From NCBI GenBank assembly GCA_934157035.1, contig CAKPHG010000004.1, forward strand, positions 53,594 through 117,593: a DNA stretch of 64,000 nt, written 5' to 3'. The stretch comes from an uncultured Clostridia bacterium. Lineage in GTDB: Bacteria > Bacillota > Clostridia > TANB77 > CAG-508. Below are positions 2,560-35,444 of the stretch, piece by piece; positions within the stretch are counted from its first letter, which is position 1, and every line of letters starts with the position of its first letter. A program made the translations under genes and the position numbers. The notes beneath the pieces were generated by a model. That model worked only from the letters and a program-made list of their open reading frames with translations, was not told the origin of the DNA and did no database searches.

Positions 2560-2671
2560 CTTTTTTCACCTATCTTATTTATCTTGTTTTAATTTTTGTC
2601 GGGGACGCATCTTTTTCTGTGGTAAATTCTTTAATGCTAAGATACTTTCCACGCTGGGTGTTTCTATTATT

Positions 2672-4269: not shown

Positions 4270-4977
4270 TTATTTTACTACTGTTCCTATTTTTTCACCC
4301 TTTACAATTCTAACCATGTTTTCTGGTTCATCTATTCCAAATACTATTAATGGTATTTGATTATCCTTGCAAAGTGATGTAGCTGTAGAATCCATAACTT
4401 TTAAATCTTTGTTTAATATATCTAAGTATGTTATTTCATCATATTTAGTTGCATTTTTATCAACTTTTGGATCTGCAGAATATACTCCGTCTATTGTTTT
4501 AGCAAGAAGTATTACTTCTGCTTCTATTTCTGCTGAACGAAGTGCTGCTGCTGTATCTGTTGTAAAGAATGGGTTTCCTGTTCCACAAGAGAATATAACA
4601 ACTCTTCCTTTTTCTAAATGTGTAGTTGCTCTTCTTCTAATGTATGGTTCTGCAATTTGTCTCATTTCTATTGCCGTTTGAAGTCTCGTTTTTAAGCCTC
4701 TTGCTTCTAATGAGTCCTGAAGTGCTAATCCATTCATTGTTGTTGCAAGCATTCCCATATAGTCTGATGTTGTTCTTTCCATTTGATGTCCATATCTTCC
4801 TCTCCAAAAGTTTCCGCCACCTACAACTATTGCAACTTCTACTCCTAAGTCTACCATTTCTTTAATATTATCACATATTCTTCCTAAAGTAATGGCATCT
4901 ACTCCTCTTCCTTCTTTACCTCCGATTGCTTCTCCACTAAGTTTTAATAGTACCCTTTTATACTTTGTTTCAGGCAT
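4270..4977 (-). CDS. pyrH: UMP kinase
   Basis: [12 protein letters not shown]-terminus and aspartokinase-fold UMPK motifs. Confidence 0.92.
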
Positions 4978-5138: not shown

Positions 5139-5879
5139 TTATTCAACTCCACATATTGCTAAAAAAGTATAACATTCATAATATGATTTTCCTTCTTCTG
5201 AACCTACTCTTGTCATTGTTGATGTTATAACATCTTCTTCTTTAAGTTCTACTAATGACCCACTTGTTATGGTTTCTCCATTTAAGGTTAGAGTATATGT
5301 GTTTTTTCCTCCATTACTTGATTCTGTATGGTTATATGTTGTTTTTCCATAATAGTATGCATATACATACGCAGGTCCAGTGTATGTGCTTTCATAAGTT
5401 AATGTAGCTGTTGTTTTTGTTCCTGAATAACTTTCTTTTCTATTATAATTACAAAATAGCATGGCTGGGTTAGTTCCTGTTCCTCCACCTGAACTACCAC
5501 CACTTGAACTGCCTGTTTTTATTTTTCTTATGTTGTCTGCCATAGTTTTAGTTGTATCCGTTTCTTGTGTTGGAACTCCTTTTTCTGTAATAGCTGTTGC
5601 TATTGCTTTTTTATGTGCTTGTAATTCTTCTTTCAACTCGCGTATTTTATCGTAAGCTAGTCCACCATTTACAGTATTTCCACCCATAAAATCATATAGT
5701 TCATTTATATCTTGTTCTTCGCCTTCCATAAAGTTTTCTGTGTTTTTCTTTGTATCTTTAGCTTTATTAAGTATTCCATTTTCTCCAACTGTCATATTAA
5801 TAGTAATTCCCGCAATAATTATTAACACAATTATTGTTATTACTAAACTTACAAGAGTTATACCACTTTCTCTTTTCAT
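5139..5879 (-). CDS. prepilin-type (class III signal) N-terminal domain protein, pilin/pseudopilin-like; Gly/Ser/Thr/Tyr-rich C-terminus
   Basis: N-terminus MKRESG|ITLVSLVITIIVLIIIAG resembles type IV pilin leader + hydrophobic helix, but lacks the conserved Glu+5. Confidence 0.4.
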   Translation of the reverse strand: MKRESGITLVSLVITIIVLIIIAGITINMTVGENGILNKAKDTKKNTENFMEGEEQDINELYDFMGGNTVNGGLAYDKIRELKEELQAHKKAIATAITEKGVPTQETDTTKTMADNIRKIKTGSSSGGSSGGGTGTNPAMLFCNYNRKESYSGTKTTATLTYESTYTGPAYVYAYYYGKTTYNHTESSNGGKNTYTLTLNGETITSGSLVELKEEDVITSTMTRVGSEEGKSYYECYTFLAICGVE

Positions 5880-5951: not shown

Positions 5952-6977
5952 TTATTGAATAAACATTGCATCTCCAAAACTAAAGAAATGATATCTTTCT
6001 TCTACTGCATGTTTATAAGCACTCATTATATATTCTTTTCCTGCTAACGCTGAAACTAACATTATTAATGTTGATTCTGGTAAATGAAAATTAGTAATTA
6101 AGCAATCTATACATTTAAATTTATAGCCTGGATATATAAATATGCTAGTGTCTCCCTCTGTTTCTTTTACAAAACCATTCTCATCTGCTACTGATTCTAG
6201 TACCCTACAAGATGTTGTTCCTACTGCTATTATTCTTCCTCCATTTTTCTTTGTATTGTTTATTTTTTCTGCATCTTCGTGTTTTATATAATAATGTTCA
6301 CTATGCATATCATGTTCTTCTATATTTTCTACTTTTACTGGTCTAAATGTTCCTATTCCAACATGAAGTGTTACATTAGCAATCTCAACACCTTTTTCTT
6401 TTATTTTTTCCAATAGTTCTTCTGTAAAATGAAGTCCTGCTGTAGGTGCTGCTGCTGAACCTTCATATTTAGCATATACTGTTTGATATCTAGATTTATC
6501 TTCTAGCTTTTCTTTTATATATGGTGGAAGTGGCATTAAACCAATTTGATCTAATATTTCATTAAATATTCCATCGTACTCAAATTTTACCTTTCTATTT
6601 CCGCCTTCCATCATTTCTAAAATTTCTGCTTTAAGTAATCCATCACCAAAAATGACTTTTGTTCCTATTTTTAGTCTTCTTCCTGGATGTACCATTACCT
6701 CCCATATATCTCCTTCTATTCTTTTTAATAATAGAAATTCTATATGTACTCCAGTTTCTTCTTTTATTCCATATAATCTTGCTGGTATTACTTTAGTGTT
6801 ATTTCTAACTAAGCAATCTCCAGGTTGTAAGTAATCTAATATATCTTTAAATATTTTATCTTCTATTGTTTTATTTTTTCTATCTAATACCATTAATCTT
6901 GCTGCACTTCTATCTTTTATTGGTACTTGTGCAATTAACTCTTGTGGTAATTCATAATCAAAGTCTGATACTTTCAT
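5952..6977 (-). CDS. queA: S-adenosylmethionine:tRNA ribosyltransferase-isomerase
   Basis: [18 protein letters not shown]-terminus and full-length QueA-like sequence. Confidence 0.92.
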
Positions 6978-8536: not shown

Positions 8537-11500
8537 TTATACTTTTTCTACTTCTATTTGAAGCTTTTCACCATTTATTGATGTTTCTGTGTAATTATTT
8601 CTTTCTGCATTGTATATAATTTCGTTTGCTAAAGTATCTCTTTGAATTTGCTCTGCAAATTTTTTGATTACATTTTCTAACATTTCGTTTCCAGTAACAT
8701 AAAGGTTAATTCTATCTAGTACTTCAAATCCACTATCTTTTCTTATGTTTTGTACTTTAGATAAAATCTCTCTTACATAACCTTCTTCTTTAAGTTCTTC
8801 AGTAATTGTAGTTTCTAATACAACACCAATTTCACCTTCACCTGCAAATGCAAATCCTTCTTTACCTTGCATTGTAATTAAAAGATTTTCGCTATTTAAT
8901 GTTATTGTCTCTTCTCCTACTTTTATTACTTCTTCTTCACCTTTTTGAATTTTTAATGCAAGTTCCATTTGATTATGTTTTGCAATTTCTTCCTTAATTT
9001 GTGGTATTAGTTTTCCATAAGTTCTTCCTAATACTGGTAGATTTGGCTTAATTTCAAAATTAACATACTCTGACATTTGAGCTCCAAACTCTACTTTCTT
9101 AATATTCAACTCATCTTTTACTATATCTGCGTAATATTTTGGAAGAGTACTTACTGAAATTAACATTTCTGAAAGTGGTTGTCTATTTTTAATATTTGCA
9201 CTATTTCTTGCACTTCTTCCTAGTTTTACTATTGTATAAGCTAAATCCATTTCTTTTTCTAATTCTTTATCTATAGTACTTTCATCTACTTCTGGCCAAG
9301 TACATAGATGTATACTTTCTGGAGCATTTTTATCTAAGTTTACTACTAAGTTTTGATAAATTTCTTCTGTAATAAATGGTACAAATGGTGCACAAACTTT
9401 GGCTAAAGTAGTTAATACTTTATATAGTGTTATATATGCGCCTATTTTATCGTCTGTTAAAGTTTCACTCCAATATCTTTCTCTGTTTCTTCTTACATAC
9501 CAGTTAGATAAGTTGTCTGTAAATTCTTCTATTTCTATTGCAGCATTTGTTATATCATATTTATCTAATTTTTCTTCTATATCTCTTATTAATGTATTTA
9601 ATTTAGAAATTATCCATTTATCCATAACATTTTCTGATTTGAAATTTGCATATTCTAATGGATTGAATTTGTCTATTTCTGCATAAAGTACATAGAATGA
9701 ATAAACATTCCATAATGTAGATAAGAATTTTCTTTGTGTTTCTTCTACATCTTTTATAGAAAATCTTGTTGGTAGCCATGGTGCTGAAGATGTATAGAAA
9801 TGCCATCTTGTAGCATCTGCTCCTACTGAATTTAATACTTCAAATGGGTCTACAACATTTCCTAAATGTTTAGACATTTTTAAACCTTTGCTATCTAAAA
9901 CATGTCCTAATACTATACAATTTTCAAATGGGTTTGTGTCAAATATACATGTTGAAATTGCTAAAAGTGTATAGAACCATCCTCTAGTTTGGTCAACAGC
10001 CTCTGATATGAATTGAGCTGGGAAGTTTTTATCAAATAGTTCTTTATTTTCAAATGGGTAATGTAATTGTGCAAAAGGCATAGAGCCTGAATCAAACCAG
10101 CAATCTATAACTTCTTTTTCTCTTACCATTTCTCCACCACAATCTGGACATTTTAAGTGAATTGGATCTAAGTATGGTTTGTGTAATTCTACATTTTCTG
10201 GTACATTTATACCTTTTTCTTCTAATTCTTTTCTAGAACCTATACATTCCATGTGACCACATTCACAACGCCATACTGGTAGTGGTGTTCCCCAATATCT
10301 ATCTCTTGAAATACCCCAGTCTATAACATTCTCTAAGAATTTTCCAAAACGACCTGTTCTAATTGTATCTGGCATCCAGTTAATTTTGTTATTGTTTTCT
10401 AATAACTTGTCTCTAACTGCTGTCATTTTTACAAACCAGCTCTCTTTTGGATAATATAGAAGTGGTGTATCACATCTCCAACAATGTGGATAGCTATGTG
10501 TATGTTTAGCAGAGCTAAATAATTTATTTTGTTTAGCAAGCCAAATACATACATCTTTATCACAAGTTTTAACAAATCTCCCTGCCCATGGTTCAACCTC
10601 TGGTACGAATTTTCCTTCTTTATCTACTAAGTTTACAAAGGCAATACCATTTTGTTTTGAAACAAAGCTATCGTCTTCACCATAAGCTGGTGCAATATGA
10701 ACTATACCAGTACCATCTGTTAATGTTACATAGTCACCATGAATTACAACAAATGCTTTTCCTTCTGGTTTTGCAAATGGCATTAATTGTTCATATTTCA
10801 TTCCTAATAATTCAGAACCTTTTACTTCTTTTACTATTTCGTATGGAATATCTTTTAAAACTGCTCCGATTAAGTCTTTAGCTAAAATGTAAATTTCTTC
10901 TGTTCCTTCTTCTTGCATTTTTCCATCTATAACTGGTCTTTCAACTTTTACATAAGCATAAGTATATGCTTTATTTACGCAAAGTGCTAAGTTAGAAGGT
11001 AATGTCCATGGAGTTGTTGTCCATGCTAAGAAATAAACATTTTCCTCACCTACTACTTTAAATTTACATGTACATGTTAAATCTTGTACATCTTTGTAAC
11101 CTTGTGCAACTTCGTGTGAAGAAAGTGCTGTTCCACATCTTGGGCAATATGGCATAACTTTATGTCCTTGATATAAAAGACCTTTATCCCACATTTGTTT
11201 TAAAGCCCACCATTCAGATTCTATATAGTCATCATGATATGTAACGTATGGATGTTCCATGTCTACCCAATAACCAATTTGGTTTGTCATATCTTCCCAC
11301 ATAGAAACATATTTAAATACGCTGTCTTTACATTCACCTATGAATTTTTCAACACCATAATCTTCAATTTGTTGTTTTCCTGAAATACCAAGTTTTTTCT
11401 CCACTTCAAGTTCAACTGGAAGACCATGAGTATCCCAACCTGCTTTACGAATTACATTGTAACCCTTCATAACTTTATACCTTGGGATAATATCTTTCAT

Positions 11501-11716
11501 AACCCTTGTTAAAATATGACCAACGTGTGGCTTTCCATTAGCTGTTGGAGGTCCATCATAAAAAGTAAAATATCTTTTACCTTCGTTAATTGCAAAATTT
11601 TTATGGATAATATCTTTTTTATCCCATAAATCTTTTACTTCATGTTCCATTCCAACAAATCCATTTTCTTTAAGTTCAACTTTCTTGTACATCTTTCTTT
11701 TCTCCTTTCCGAACAC
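8537..11716 (-). CDS. ileS: isoleucyl-tRNA synthetase, type 2 (long, eukaryote-like form)
   Basis: 1059 aa; HIGH motif (PHVGHILT), KMSKS motif (KMSKHLGN), zinc-binding Cys clusters, class I editing domain. Confidence 0.95.
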
Positions 11717-11822
11717 CAGGGACGGTCCTTTTCGTTCCGTTTTCGGAACACATGGGACATTCCTTTATTTTTATTACATTAGTAATGTTTTCTTTTGGTG
11801 TTTTTATCACTTTTTTATACAT

Positions 11823-12089
11823 TTATTTTTTAAAATTTCCTGCTACGCTTTTTATATCTTGTAATTCGAATCTGTATTTTTGTGTAACATTTGGATATTT
11901 TTCGTGATCAACTTCTGATAAAAACATTTCTTTTTGTCTTACCCATAGGCTATTATCTTCGTATAGTCTTCTATATACAACCATTTCTTCTTTTGTTTCA
12001 GAATCTTTTGCAATGTCTTCTACTAAATAATAGTCTCCTTTAAAATGTTTGTATATTCCTTTTATTTTTAGTTCTTGCATTTTTCTCAC
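11823..12089 (-). CDS. DUF1653-family small protein
   Basis: 88 aa with [13 protein letters not shown]-like core typical of DUF1653; sits between the T-box leader and ileS. Confidence 0.65.
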
Positions 12090-12100
12090 CTCTCTTTATG

Positions 12101-12214
12101 TGAGCCGAAGGGGACGTTTCTTTTCGGTTCATCTGTCCCTTTTGGTTCACTTCTATCGATTTTTTTGAACCGTTTGTACCAGATGAACCGAAAAGAAACG
12201 TCCCCTTCGGCTCA
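12101..12214. repeat. 35-bp perfect inverted repeat (arms 12101..12135 and 12180..12214, 44-nt spacer with its own GGTTC/GAACC hairpin)
   Basis: Seen directly: TGAGCCGAAGGGGACGTTTCTTTTCGGTTCATCTG and its exact reverse complement. A related CCGAA..GGGACGG..TTCGG hairpin lies at 11703..11760. Confidence 0.85.
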
Positions 12215-12225
12215 CAGGTCACACA

Positions 12226-12460
12226 AAAAACTCTATTTCATCCTACATAGGACGAAATAGAGTTTGAACTTTCCGTGATACCACCTAAATTGAAAATAAT
12301 TTGATTTTTATTTTCCACTTATTTTCCTTTAACGCAGAGAATTACGTTTAAACTTAATCTTTTTTCAAATTTCAGTTTAAAAACTAAAAGGTGATAACAA
12401 ATAAAATAGTTCCTACTAGAATTTCACCAAGTATCTAGCTCTCTTAAGGCTTTTTTTATT
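12226..12460 (-). ncRNA. T-box riboswitch leader (probably Ile-specific) with intrinsic terminator
   Basis: Minus strand carries AGAGAG, GGUGAA and AGUAG stem-I-like motifs, then the T-box sequence AAUUUAGGUGGUAUCACGG (plus 12273..12291). Terminator hairpin (plus 12229..12266) followed by UUUUUU. Candidate specifier AUC-A at plus 12393..12395. Confidence 0.55.
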
Positions 12461-12570
12461 TGTGTTGTCCTTATTATTGTTTTTATTCATTATTTAACTG
12501 TTGTATTATATATTAACATCTTTTATACTTTTTTTCAATAGTTTAAATAGAAATATTTTTATTTTTATAT

Positions 12571-14957: not shown

Positions 14958-15036
14958 AAAACCTCCTAAACATTTTTATTTAATTTTATTATGCTTAGAA
15001 TGTCCTTTATTACTATAAATACCACATTTTGATATA

Positions 15037-15069
15037 CTAAACTAATAGGGACTGTCCCTATTAGTTTAG
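15037..15069. repeat. 33-nt perfect palindrome, collapsed copy of the GGGAC-core inverted-repeat element
   Basis: CTAAACTAATAGGGAC-T-GTCCCTATTAGTTTAG; halves match the terminal repeats at 35332..35364 and 35412..35444. Confidence 0.8.
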
Positions 15070-15111
15070 CAGTATTATGTAAAGAACAAGAATGACCTAT
15101 TTAAAAATGTC

Positions 15112-15143
15112 CTAAACTAAAACGGCCCGTCCCTATTAGTTTA
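15112..15143. repeat. solo copy of the GGGAC-core element; its end overlaps the stop codon of ABC gene 15141..17609
   Basis: CTAAACTAAAACGGCCCGTCCCTATTAGTTTA, one substitution relative to 35412..35444. Confidence 0.8.
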
Positions 15144-17609
15144 CTCTAAATCGTGTCTTGATAATATTTGTGCTGGCGTTTTTCTTAATACTCTGAATAG
15201 TGGCAATAATCCCACTATAATATTAAATGCATATATTAACAATATACTTAGTCCTATTACTTGGAAGTTTATTATAAACATTTTTGATAATTGTCTTATT
15301 TGAATTAGACAATTTAGTATATAACTCATAAATATTATTCCAAGCATACTAACAGATATTGTTATTGCTATAGTTTCTCCTACAAACATTTTGTAAATGT
15401 CGCTTTTCTTTACTCCTATTGCTCTCAAAATTCCAACTTCTTTTATTCTAGATAAGAATGATGATCTCATCATTAAATATATTTCTACTAATGATATTAC
15501 AAGTATTATTCCTGCAAATATAATTGCACTTTTTCTTGAAGAACTTTGTTCTTTTAAATATGCTTTTTTATCATTTTGATATGTATTTTCTACAAACAAA
15601 TTATATTTTTCGTCAAATTCACTAATTACTTTTTCTTCATCTTTTGGATAAATAACAAGGTTTTGACTTTCTGTTATTAATTTGTATTTAGCAGTGTTTT
15701 CATTTACTAAGTAGCTATTATCATTTGTTTCTGAGTCATAATATCCTACAACTGTGAGTTCTGTTCCATTTATTGTTGTCTTTATTTTTTTGTTTAATTT
15801 CATACTATATTGATTGCTTATATTTACAATTACTTCATAGTCGTTTTCTGGTAGTCTTCCCTTTTTTAGCGTAATTGTGTCTAATTTTAGCTCATAATTT
15901 ACTATATTTTCTTGTGATTTTTCCTGCTCACTATTATCTATTACTATTCCTGTCATATTATCAGATTTGTTGGTATTGCATAATATGTTGTTAAAAATAG
16001 TCTCCTTTGTATATATAGATGGGCTCTTTAAGTCTACTATTCCTACTATTTCAAAATTTTTCATATTTGGAATTGATACTTTTTTGCCTAATAGTTGACT
16101 TGCATTTTTTATTCCAGCATGTGATATTCCACTATTTGAATTTATCATTTTATCAACTGTCATTTTATCTATTACTATTTCGTATTCATTTTTTGGAAGT
16201 CTTCCTTCTGTAATGTCACTTTCGCTTAACATATTTACTGTTGAAAGTGATCCTGCAAGTTCTCCATCTAGTTTGCTTGTTTGATAATATTCATCAAATT
16301 TTATTGCAAATGAGACACTACTATTTCCTGGTAAAATATAATTTACATTTTCGTTTTGCTCATATTCTAAGAATTGGTCTACATTTAATCTTGGAAGTTT
16401 TACTTCTAAATAATTTTTGTTTCTGCTAATAAAATCTTCATCTTTTGTATTTAATGTTCCTGCAATATTACTAATTGCATATAGAACAAACATTGCAGAT
16501 ACAAAAAATCCTATTAATAAAATCTTCTTTAATACTGAATAACTTAATATCTTTTTAAATCCATTTACTATTGACCTTGGTATACTGTAAATAGAGCTAT
16601 ATTTAGGTTTTATACTTTTATCTGTTATTTTATCTAAGTTATAATTATATTGTTCAAATATTGTCTTATCTATTTTTTTATAATGGTCATCTACTAGTTC
16701 TACAACTGAACTTTCATCTATAACTTCTACTTTTTTATCATTTGATTTAATATATATATTTCCGTTTTTTATTACAATTTGTATATTTAAAGAATCTTCA
16801 TTTTCTTTATATATATTTAAATTTATGTTGTCTTTTTTAATTTCTTCAATTTTCTCAAAATCTTTTAAATATATTTTATTATCTAGTCTGTAGTCTAAGT
16901 CTTTTTCTTCTGTATTTTCGTAGTCTTTTTCTACTTTTCCGTCTACTATTTCTATTATTCTTGAAGCATAAAATTTAGCAAGTTCAACCTCATGTGTTAC
17001 TAAAATGACTAGTTTATCTTTTGAAATTGCTTTTATTATATTCATTATTTCTAATGAATTTTTACTGTCTAAGTTTCCTGTTGGCTCATCTGCTATAATA
17101 ATATTTGGATTTTTTACTATTGCTCTTGCTATACCAACTCTTTGTCTTTCTCCTCCTGAAAGCATACTTGCAAGTCTATTTCTATAACGATACATATTTA
17201 CACTTTCTAATACATAGTCTACTCTCTTTTTTATTTCGTTTTTATCTTTTATTCCTATCATTTTTAGTGTAATTGCAATATTTTCGAAAACTGTCATATT
17301 ATCTAGTAATTTGTAATCTTGAAATATATAACCTATATTTAAGTTTCTTATTTTATCAACTTTGTGGCTTGTTCTTCTAGTTATTTTTTGCCCATTAATA
17401 TAGATTTTGCCTTTATTTATTTTATCTAATCCGCCTATACTATTTAAAAGTGTAGTCTTTCCGCTTCCAGAATGTCCAAGTAAGGCAACTAATCCAGTTT
17501 TACCAAATTCAAGTGTTGTGTTATTTATAACATGAATTTGATTTTTCTTTCCTTTATTAAAATATTTATTTGCTTTTTCTATTTTTATCATTGCCTTACA
17601 CCTCCTCAT
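15141..17609 (-). CDS. ABC transporter, fused ATP-binding domain + FtsX/MacB-type permease
   Basis: Walker A GHSGSGKTT, signature LSGGERQRVGIARA, large extracytoplasmic domain, C-terminal FtsX-like 4-TM bundle. Confidence 0.85.
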   Translation of the reverse strand: MRRCKAMIKIEKANKYFNKGKKNQIHVINNTTLEFGKTGLVALLGHSGSGKTTLLNSIGGLDKINKGKIYINGQKITRRTSHKVDKIRNLNIGYIFQDYKLLDNMTVFENIAITLKMIGIKDKNEIKKRVDYVLESVNMYRYRNRLASMLSGGERQRVGIARAIVKNPNIIIADEPTGNLDSKNSLEIMNIIKAISKDKLVILVTHEVELAKFYASRIIEIVDGKVEKDYENTEEKDLDYRLDNKIYLKDFEKIEEIKKDNINLNIYKENEDSLNIQIVIKNGNIYIKSNDKKVEVIDESSVVELVDDHYKKIDKTIFEQYNYNLDKITDKSIKPKYSSIYSIPRSIVNGFKKILSYSVLKKILLIGFFVSAMFVLYAISNIAGTLNTKDEDFISRNKNYLEVKLPRLNVDQFLEYEQNENVNYILPGNSSVSFAIKFDEYYQTSKLDGELAGSLSTVNMLSESDITEGRLPKNEYEIVIDKMTVDKMINSNSGISHAGIKNASQLLGKKVSIPNMKNFEIVGIVDLKSPSIYTKETIFNNILCNTNKSDNMTGIVIDNSEQEKSQENIVNYELKLDTITLKKGRLPENDYEVIVNISNQYSMKLNKKIKTTINGTELTVVGYYDSETNDNSYLVNENTAKYKLITESQNLVIYPKDEEKVISEFDEKYNLFVENTYQNDKKAYLKEQSSSRKSAIIFAGIILVISLVEIYLMMRSSFLSRIKEVGILRAIGVKKSDIYKMFVGETIAITISVSMLGIIFMSYILNCLIQIRQLSKMFIINFQVIGLSILLIYAFNIIVGLLPLFRVLRKTPAQILSRHDLE

Positions 17610-27168: not shown

Positions 27169-27210
27169 AATAAGGACATTTGGGGACGGGGCTCTTTTGT
27201 TCTTTACATA
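27169..27210. repeat. degenerate copy of the GGGAC-core/AATGTCCTT repeat family, abutting the stop of MFS gene 27214..28419
   Basis: Reverse complement TTATGTAAAGAACAAAAGAGCCCCGTCCCCAAATGTCCTTATT is ~85 % identical to 33447..33490. Confidence 0.7.
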
Positions 27211-35331: not shown

Positions 35332-35444
35332 CTAAACTAATAGGGACGGGCCTTTTTAGTTTAGTTAAATTAATTGATTTCAATCAATTTTATAGATTAA
35401 TAATTATTCTACTAAACTAAAAAGGCCCGTCCCTATTAGTTTAG
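35332..35444. mobile_element. 113-bp MITE-like element: 33-nt terminal inverted repeats around a 47-nt AT-rich core, in the intergenic spacer of the ABC exporter operon
   Basis: 35332..35364 is the exact reverse complement of 35412..35444; the right TIR contains the TAA stop of the upstream ABC gene. Confidence 0.6.

Follow-up and report, generated by a model that had tools for sequence, protein, structure and literature searches.

A 118-bp palindrome, here called E1, lies between the T-box leader of ileS and a small DUF1653 gene in a 64-kb stretch of DNA from an uncultured Clostridia bacterium (64,000 nucleotides, hereafter the window, to which all coordinates refer unless another contig is named). 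[quoted passage not shown]

Palindrome E1 and its variation among strains

E1 consists of two perfectly complementary arms of 37 nt (12099-12135 and 12180-12216) with 44 nt between them. An earlier note, made from the sequence of the window, had described a perfect inverted repeat of 35 bp here; the repeat is indeed perfect, and its arms measure 37 nt. The genes of the ileS locus are all on the minus strand, and its features are the following.

12510..12538, minus: site resembling a promoter, ahead of the T-box: TTGAAA and TAATAT 17 nt apart, with a TG extension (consensus scan only)
12245..12486, minus: T-box leader (Rfam RF00230, 84.4 bits, E = 1.7e-18)
12228..12265, minus: intrinsic terminator of the T-box, intact, with a 17-bp stem and a U-run, stopping 12 nt before E1
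12099..12216, minus: palindrome E1, 118 bp, between the T-box terminator and the ribosome-binding site (RBS) of the DUF1653 gene
12180..12216, minus: E1 arm nearer the 5′ end of the mRNA, made of one hairpin unit in 'G' orientation (GTGAGCCGAAGGGGACGTTTCTTTTCGGTTCAT) and a few additional bases
12136..12179, minus: E1 spacer, with a small hairpin of its own (GGTTCA...TGAACC) and a half-unit-like stretch, TGAACCAAAAGGGACA
12099..12135, minus: E1 arm nearer the 3′ end of the mRNA, the same unit in 'C' orientation (...GAACCGAAAAGAAACGTCCCCTTCGGCTCAC), stopping 9 nt before the DUF1653 RBS
11823..12080, minus: DUF1653 gene, 85 aa, first cistron after the T-box (PF07866)
130 nt between DUF1653 and ileS: spacer, the final part of which is hairpin hp3, against the ileS RBS
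11704..11765 (approximate), minus: hp3, a compact double unit (…AATGTCCC… and …ACCGTCCC…) forming one imperfect hairpin that abuts the ileS RBS
8537..11710, minus: ileS with its RBS (GGAAAGGAGA at 11701-11710), ATG at 11692, 1051 aa

The 26-nt core of the E1 arm occurs twice in the window, against 0.00 occurrences expected from 100 shuffles. Two small open reading frames predicted over the palindrome yield one and the same mirrored peptide, ...CEPKGTFLFGSS..., and are the mirror artefacts that the earlier note took them for. The same note had pointed to a second, related hairpin abutting the ileS RBS and to a motif that it has in common with the arms. Both are found: hp3 and the E1 arms have a 16-nt stretch in common, the plus strand of hp3 bears the canonical core GGGACGGTCCTTTT, and the motif AAAG-NNN-CGTCCC, with one mismatch permitted, has 9 matches in the window where 0.49 are expected. 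Kept in all 11 same-species sequences compared, hp3 is probably an older, fixed remnant of the same repeat family as E1.

The exact 85-aa DUF1653 protein is called on hundreds of human-gut metagenome contigs, and ileS always comes next. Ten of these contigs, all from the same species and with a 100% identical DUF1653 protein, were fetched and compared with the window (L-numbers denote contigs or loci throughout). The T-box, its terminator, DUF1653, hp3 and ileS are constant in all 10, and the stretch from the U-run of the terminator to the DUF1653 RBS occurs as three alleles. Five contigs carry a 65-nt spacer (allele A), three carry the 65-nt spacer together with a different, hairpin-rich insert of ~115 nt (L006, L007 and L009), and E1 is found in the window, L003 and L005, being absent from 8 of the 10 contigs. 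In L003 and L005, one to three substitutions break the perfect symmetry of the palindrome. Allele A may be the ancestral state, mainly on grounds of parsimony; the stretch that it has in common with a sister species, P0114, is only 10 nt long (TATAGTCTTA). A promoter scan of the palindrome-free spacer (TTGATGCTATATAAT) called no internal promoter.

The ~115-nt insert (L006 5824-5948, and likewise in L007 and L009) contains two perfect hairpins of 10-11 bp, and its first 57 nt recur, at 93% identity, elsewhere in the same species (L001 3981-4036). The insert is therefore a second small dispersed repeat, and the post-terminator position a hot spot of insertion.

An inverted-repeat scan of the window revealed two more palindromes of the size and design of E1, the three ranging from 113 to 118 bp, and two possible solitary cores were also noted.

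15033..15148, no strand assigned: E2, palindromic doublet with B-type arms (CTAAACTAATAGGGAC...), directly after the stop codon of an FtsX-type ABC permease gene
35332..35444, no strand assigned: E3, palindromic doublet with B-type arms, between two ABC transporter genes
2602..2615, plus: candidate core, solitary or degenerate, GGGACGCATCTTTT, between frr and uppS; a chance match is possible
27183..27196, plus: possible solitary or degenerate core GGGACGGGGCTCTT; a chance match is possible

The two palindromes vary among strains as well. E2 is found only in the window, L003 and L005, and ordinary terminator hairpins occupy its site in other strains. The empty site of E3 is seen in L088 (1180-1201), where the two ABC genes overlap at their stop and start (…AAATAATG). 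In the filled allele, one arm of E3 provides the last codons and the stop of the upstream gene (CTA AAC TAA, 35436-35444), shortening that ABC transporter by seven codons, and the other arm reaches the downstream gene, which has a different RBS at the end of that arm. E3 has rewired the junction of this operon. Neither E1 nor E3 is accompanied by a target-site duplication, as is expected for Y1 transposition.

The window as a whole has ~27% G+C and a uniformly negative GC skew, and against this background the repeat units, at ~50% G+C, form small GC islands. For all four single cores of the window, the G strand lies on the plus strand.

A dispersed family of hairpin units

The B-type arms of E2 and E3 (CTAAACTAATAGGGACGGGCCTTTTTAGTTTAG) align in register over 33 nt with the A-type arms of E1 (GTGAGCCGAAGGGGACGTTTCTTTTCGGTTCAT), and the differences in their stems are compensating, indicating that each arm is itself a hairpin of ~33 nt and each palindrome a pair of such hairpins set head to head. 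The arms of both types have the tip GGGACG…CTTTT in common, and RGGGACGGNNCTTTT is the conserved tip of the ~33-nt arm hairpins. From this alignment we derived the search pattern T.A.C..A..GGGACG...CTTTT..GTT.A and applied it to one genome per species from 185,579 species. It retrieved 75 exact-pattern units in 65 loci, all from metagenome-assembled genomes (MAGs). Most belong to uncultured Clostridia, with ~27 loci in one MAG and ~8 in another, and a few are from Bacteroidales, Actinomycetota, PVC and other MAGs. Two MAGs of this species-representative collection carry the B type of the window.

The stems vary from genome to genome, and the tip RGGGACGG(K)(Y)CTTTT is kept. Among 40 distinct units, 92.5% of the stem cells are paired, compared with 33-62% in slid controls. 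Three stem pairs are left free by the search pattern, and all three change on both sides (51 cells), a result matched by 0 of 500 shuffles. The E1 unit itself was aligned in register with 59 other distinct units. Across the 75 units, the flanks contain no conserved tetranucleotide, and conservation sits at the tip of the hairpin. A literature text search for the core sequences returned only irrelevant primer matches.

The genes that adjoin the units represent 151 different Pfam families, and single units located between co-directional genes are not biased in orientation (12 versus 14). Neighbours of so many kinds and the lack of a preferred strand are the mark of a dispersed DNA repeat and not of a sense-specific RNA motif. 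Rfam has no family that covers the units, as judged for the E1 region, searched in E-value mode, and 16 related loci, where the long stem drew only artefactual matches to plant and animal microRNA hairpins. The sequence GAGCCG…CGGTTC in the E1 arm resembles the lower stem of domain V of group II introns; this candidate was dropped, as the stems differ in other units of the family. The Rfam searches gave no group II intron match.

The arrangement of the units is diverse. In L052, two near-identical elements of ~260 bp (4457-4692 and 6100-6335) consist of inverted units bounding a conserved interior of ~200 nt, the sole case seen in which a whole doublet and its cargo are repeated, much like a non-autonomous transposon. 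An Actinomycetota MAG holds tandem arrays of units with a period of 38-41 nt (L062 340-540 and 1745-1835; L050 7160-7330; TGAACGAACGGGGACGGTTCTTTTTCGTTCA), so different phyla share the core, at high GC too. In four further loci (L014 5505-5625, L016 7159-7280, L021 6643-6763 and L066 6045-6164), doublets bracket a locus-specific, AT-rich hairpin with T-runs that resembles a bidirectional terminator. Together with E1, which follows a terminator, and E2, which replaces one, these doublets hint that the units settle beside terminator hairpins.

Y1 transposase genes beside the units and their known relatives

Y1_Tnp accounts for 2 of the 110 nearest neighbouring open reading frames, and a tblastn search places Y1_Tnp genes beside units in 6 of the 65 loci. 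Three of these genes have units on both sides in inverted orientation (L012, L056 and L030), two have a unit on one side (L057 and L074), and in L037 the second unit is degenerate and in the same orientation. The Y1 gene of L012 is closely framed, by a G-orientation unit 45 nt before its start and a C-orientation unit 10 nt after its stop, and that of L056 is flanked on either side by double units. Five of the six proteins, all but that of L030, pass the Pfam Y1_Tnp cutoff of 23 bits (34.6-59.5 bits). These five are 241-279 aa long, with C-terminal tails of ~110-150 aa, and three of the tails (L056, L074 and L037) contain sub-threshold helix-turn-helix signals, the best being HTH_23 in L074 (22.7 bits versus a threshold of 24.6, E = 8.5e-5). 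The NCBIfam model 'REP-associated tyrosine transposase' scores 74.6 bits for L012 and 65.2 bits for L074, and an IS200 transposase model reaches 29.6 bits, for L012 only. The L012 protein also aligns to E. coli TnpA-REP, whose structure is solved (4ER8), over the HUH (HVH) and YIHNNPVK motifs, at E = 0.19. No tnpB gene lies beside the two Y1 genes examined for it (L012 and L056).

In L012 (5460-5475) and L056 (2090-2105), the Y1 gene is directly upstream of the same gene, whose product begins MDYKDLA… and has a class I synthetase-like motif (APSPTGFVHIGG); we regard this downstream gene as putatively gltX-like. That the position of the Y1 gene is common to both MAGs suggests vertical inheritance of the transposase locus. 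In the species of the window, a Y1_Tnp (PF01797) gene, 249 aa, starts right after queA on two contigs (L002 12167-12258 and L010 12169-12258), and at the position after queA the window has instead a 246-aa protein with a prepilin-like N-terminus (5139-5879). The closest available homologue of the Y1 fragment of this species, L057, is too different to serve as bait.

TIRtrons are RAYT-like TIRYT genes flanked by inverted repeats that carry GGGGWSAS and not the GTAG of REPs, and some of their repeats are self-complementary, moderately abundant and found in dimers or clusters (Di Nocera et al. 2013, PMC3733652). The loci described here resemble them in several ways. A Y1/HUH protein longer than classical RAYTs, in three of five cases with sub-threshold helix-turn-helix signals in its tail, is encoded between inverted repeats. 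The self-complementary units are of moderate abundance and occur as dimers and clusters, and their G-rich core, GGGGACGG with GGGACACC variants, comes close to GGGGWSAS. Units with the GGGACACC variant (L056 and L081) fit the WSAS part. The hosts are different, being uncultured low-GC Clostridia, whereas the main text of the 2013 survey names neither Firmicutes nor Clostridia (PMC3733652). In a later classification, TIRYTs form subclass 2.1, long proteins with a C-terminal helix-turn-helix, and no REP-like sequences were found near the subclass 2.1 genes (Quentin et al. 2018, PMC6006769). The repeats that flank the present genes are by contrast clear hairpins with covarying stems. RAYTs of Group 1 have been recorded in Clostridia (Bertels et al. 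2017, PMC5581495).

Like the REP, BIME and REPIN sequences of E. coli and Pseudomonas, the units are short, multi-copy extragenic palindromes that form inverted doublets as long hairpins, lie mostly downstream of genes, vary between strains, lack target duplications and flank a transposase gene in a REPtron-like fashion. They differ from REPs in that the 5′ foot of the hairpin bears no unpaired GTAG or GTGG and the conserved part is the tip, and from REPINs in that the spacers of their doublets are not conserved. The RAYT NCBIfam score is just below its cutoff. The 'C' strand of our units contains …CGTCCCC…, which, with their palindromic form and frequent head-to-head dimers, recalls the CGTC-tagged REPs. 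In those, an unpaired end tag precedes a stem of 8-9 bp and a loop of 4-5 nt, and these families lack an associated transposase (Di Nocera et al. 2013, PMC3733652). Here, CGTC lies within the tip, the stems are of 9-10 bp with an apical region of ~11-13 nt, and Y1 genes are associated, so membership in that group was rejected on architecture. With IS200/IS605 elements, the loci have in common a Y1 HUH enzyme, hairpin ends and the absence of target-site duplications. They differ in the poor IS200 model match, in the lack of a visible tnpB at L012 and L056, and in the placement of the Y1 gene upstream of the same downstream gene in those two related MAGs.

The following course of events may be proposed. 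By analogy with enzymes of the RAYT/IS200 type, the hairpin, recognised on single-stranded DNA by a Y1 transposase, would be cut and rejoined, and units would in this way spread into intergenic DNA. In some strains, the short stretch that separates the ileS T-box terminator from the DUF1653 RBS would have given way to a doublet; the T-box and its terminator are untouched. Read-through RNA from this allele would bear a very stable 37-bp stem 9 nt before the Shine-Dalgarno (SD) sequence of DUF1653, pairing weakly with it. DUF1653 itself is an independent, clade-specific first cistron of a T-box-controlled ileS operon. We infer that E1 is close to neutral, if not wholly so; processing or translation may be altered as a bystander effect, and no such effect is required, because most strains lack E1.

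Several observations weigh against this account. The exact A-type arm of E1 has no further copy in the window, in the 185,579 species-representative genomes or in the metagenome contigs of the Joint Genome Institute (JGI); its exact core met, in the metagenome collection, one chance coding match and one unrelated high-GC doublet only. Its nearest units, from a rumen Clostridiales MAG, show 6 differences in 33 positions, compared with 14 of 33 for the B-type units of the window. On these searches, E1 is a singleton variant, and it may stem from a rare subfamily in the strain, from import by recombination or from homogenisation of an older doublet. A cognate transposase was not found in the window, and only the first 30 codons of the Y1_Tnp gene are visible in the two other strains that have it. 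The NCBIfam score of the L012 protein falls just under the equivalog cutoff of 80, and the commonest core, GGGGACGG, agrees with GGGGWSAS at 7 of 8 positions, leaving a one-position mismatch. The alleles of the variable sites differ by replacement of ~20-65 nt and not by clean insertion. With the exception of the L052 pair, the spacers of 20 doublets are unrelated in sequence and length (arm to arm ~30-255 nt), so that either doublets, in the manner of REPINs, or single units may be what moves. Finally, both the mobility of the repeats and the recognition of the hairpin by the enzyme are properties that we infer.

Alternative explanations and the ileS locus

The arrangement reported in the earlier note, in which the T-box leader and its terminator are not directly 5′ of ileS and E1, DUF1653 and hp3 lie between, is confirmed by sequence, Rfam and Pfam. 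The leader matches the full length of the RF00230 model at 84.4 bits, under the curated gathering score of 93 bits. A candidate specifier, AUC (Ile) followed by A, lies within ...UUGUUAUCACCU..., and this codon and AGGUGGUAUCACGG were read from the leader by eye. The promoter-like site (TTGAAA/TAATAT) is also present in one same-species contig. The T-box leader is kept in all same-species contigs and is recognisable by eye in the sister species. The DUF1653 gene, taken by the earlier note as a real gene, is genuine: its product scores 85.8 bits against PF07866 (cutoff 23.5, E = 2.6e-24), and its start is likely the ATG at 12080, giving 85 aa. The ileS product has the Pfam domains tRNA-synt_1 and Anticodon_1. 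Like ordinary Firmicutes ileS T-box leaders, this one places a promoter-like site, a T-box with a candidate Ile (AUC) specifier, and a terminator/antiterminator ahead of a synthetase operon. It differs in that the small DUF1653 gene is the first cistron in this clade and in its post-terminator spacer, which occurs as three alleles and is a hot spot of small hairpin repeats.

The order T-box, DUF1653, ileS is found in the species of the window and in three further species, whose DUF1653 proteins are 87, 85 and 80% identical to that of the window, and in none of these three does a long palindrome follow the T-box terminator. The P0095 species has 26 nt between DUF1653 and ileS and no hp3, and the P0114 species has an hp3-like double GTCC hairpin. 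Homologues of DUF1653 at 53-76% identity are not beside ileS. Since the linkage is present in four species and the hairpins vary, the placement of DUF1653 is ancestral to a narrow clade and independent of the repeats. On the question whether this region is ancestral or inserted, then, the outcome is mixed: the linkage is ancestral within a small clade and the structures are not conserved; other copies of the repeat family exist, and no further copy of the exact arm was found in the sequences searched. At the place of E1 after the ileS T-box terminator, P0095 has a mini-palindrome (L076 2925-2945, TTGGGACGGTCCAAA) with the canonical core GGGACGGTCC, which suggests either repeated targeting of the site or a very old remnant. 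The sole solved relative of DUF1653 is a distant and uncharacterised one, 3BE3.

The earlier note had offered two explanations for the region, an insertion bounded by inverted repeats that carries DUF1653 and a multi-hairpin region of processing or attenuation. In the former, a mobile element with E1 at one end and hp3 at the other would have brought DUF1653 into the ileS leader. E1 is indeed insertion-type, mobile-looking and related to hp3 through their common 16 nt, and DUF1653 must have arrived at some point, its adjacency to ileS being limited to the narrow clade and its 53-76% homologues lying elsewhere. The cargo does not hold: an identical DUF1653 is found in all 10 contigs and E1 in two of them, three sister species have the linkage without a long palindrome, one of them also without hp3, and E1 and hp3 belong to a genome-wide repeat family and are not a unique pair. 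We give this explanation almost no credence. The latter would make E1 and hp3 an added level of regulation or processing in the ileS leader, such as an RNase III site parting the T-box leader from the coding mRNA or a translational attenuator of DUF1653 or ileS. The RNA fold lends it some appeal, as the read-through RNA would contain a perfect 37-bp duplex, the E1 region folds at -106 kcal/mol (z = -14), and in the minimum-energy fold 4 further pairs join ACCU in the 5′ flank to AGGU of the DUF1653 SD sequence; hp3, moreover, is in all strains and touches the ileS RBS, and P0114 has an analogous hairpin. A dedicated RNA device is nonetheless improbable, given that 8 of the 10 same-species contigs and all three sister species lack E1, that hp3 is missing from P0095, and that the units occupy dozens of unrelated intergenic places beside ~150 unrelated gene families, with no strand preference and no Rfam family besides the artefactual microRNA matches.

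A conventional miniature inverted-repeat transposable element (MITE), the offshoot of an insertion sequence that encodes a DDE transposase, would also account for terminal inverted repeats, a size of 113-118 bp and strain-variable presence. Such an element is very hard to reconcile with the absence of target-site duplications at E1 and E3, with arms that are themselves hairpins with covarying stems, with the existence of single units and tandem arrays, and with the fact that the only transposase genes found bracketed by units are of the Y1/HUH type; we consider it highly unlikely. Compatible with a Y1-linked REP-like doublet, and less easily dismissed, is a role for the host, in which the hairpins are retained as intercistronic mRNA stabilisers, terminators or translation couplers. 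E. coli REPs stabilise upstream mRNA. The units often start on the upstream stop codon and end at the next RBS (E3, L012 and L056), several doublets bracket a terminator-like hairpin, and other strains have terminators at the E2 site. An SD sequence and start codon lie within 30 nt of 12% of unit flanks versus 2% of random positions, a weak enrichment of little weight, as the control included non-intergenic DNA. The presence of the units varies between very close strains, though, and their orientation is unbiased; both speak against strong selection for an RNA function at every site, and we judge such service to the host unlikely.

A dispersed, strain-variable REP-like doublet thus remains our preferred explanation for E1. 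A broader and more speculative proposal, doubtful but worth stating, is that an undescribed cross-phylum superfamily of 'tip-tagged' REP-like repeats, with the apex RGGGACGGNYC and free stems, is served by helix-turn-helix Y1 TIRYTs, enzymes with no hairpin substrate recognised until now. Its units would settle at the gene junctions of AT-rich gut Clostridia, providing stop codons and lying against RBSs, and after terminators, a riboswitch-type leader among them, where E1 would measurably alter the processing or translation of DUF1653-ileS between strains.

For the ileS locus, the finding removes two tempting readings, leaving neither an extra regulatory layer nor a transposon that carries DUF1653. 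That DUF1653 stands first, in this clade alone, among the cistrons under an Ile T-box offers a small clue to what this protein does. At three sites, in a T-box leader, at the 3′ end of a gene and at an operon junction, strains that have the element and strains that lack it form natural pairs, which provide material for transcript and mobility tests. For the transposases, the poorly characterised TIRYT branch of the RAYT family gains a concrete candidate hairpin substrate, with covariation and clear flanking, in uncultured gut Clostridia, where such elements are hardly catalogued.

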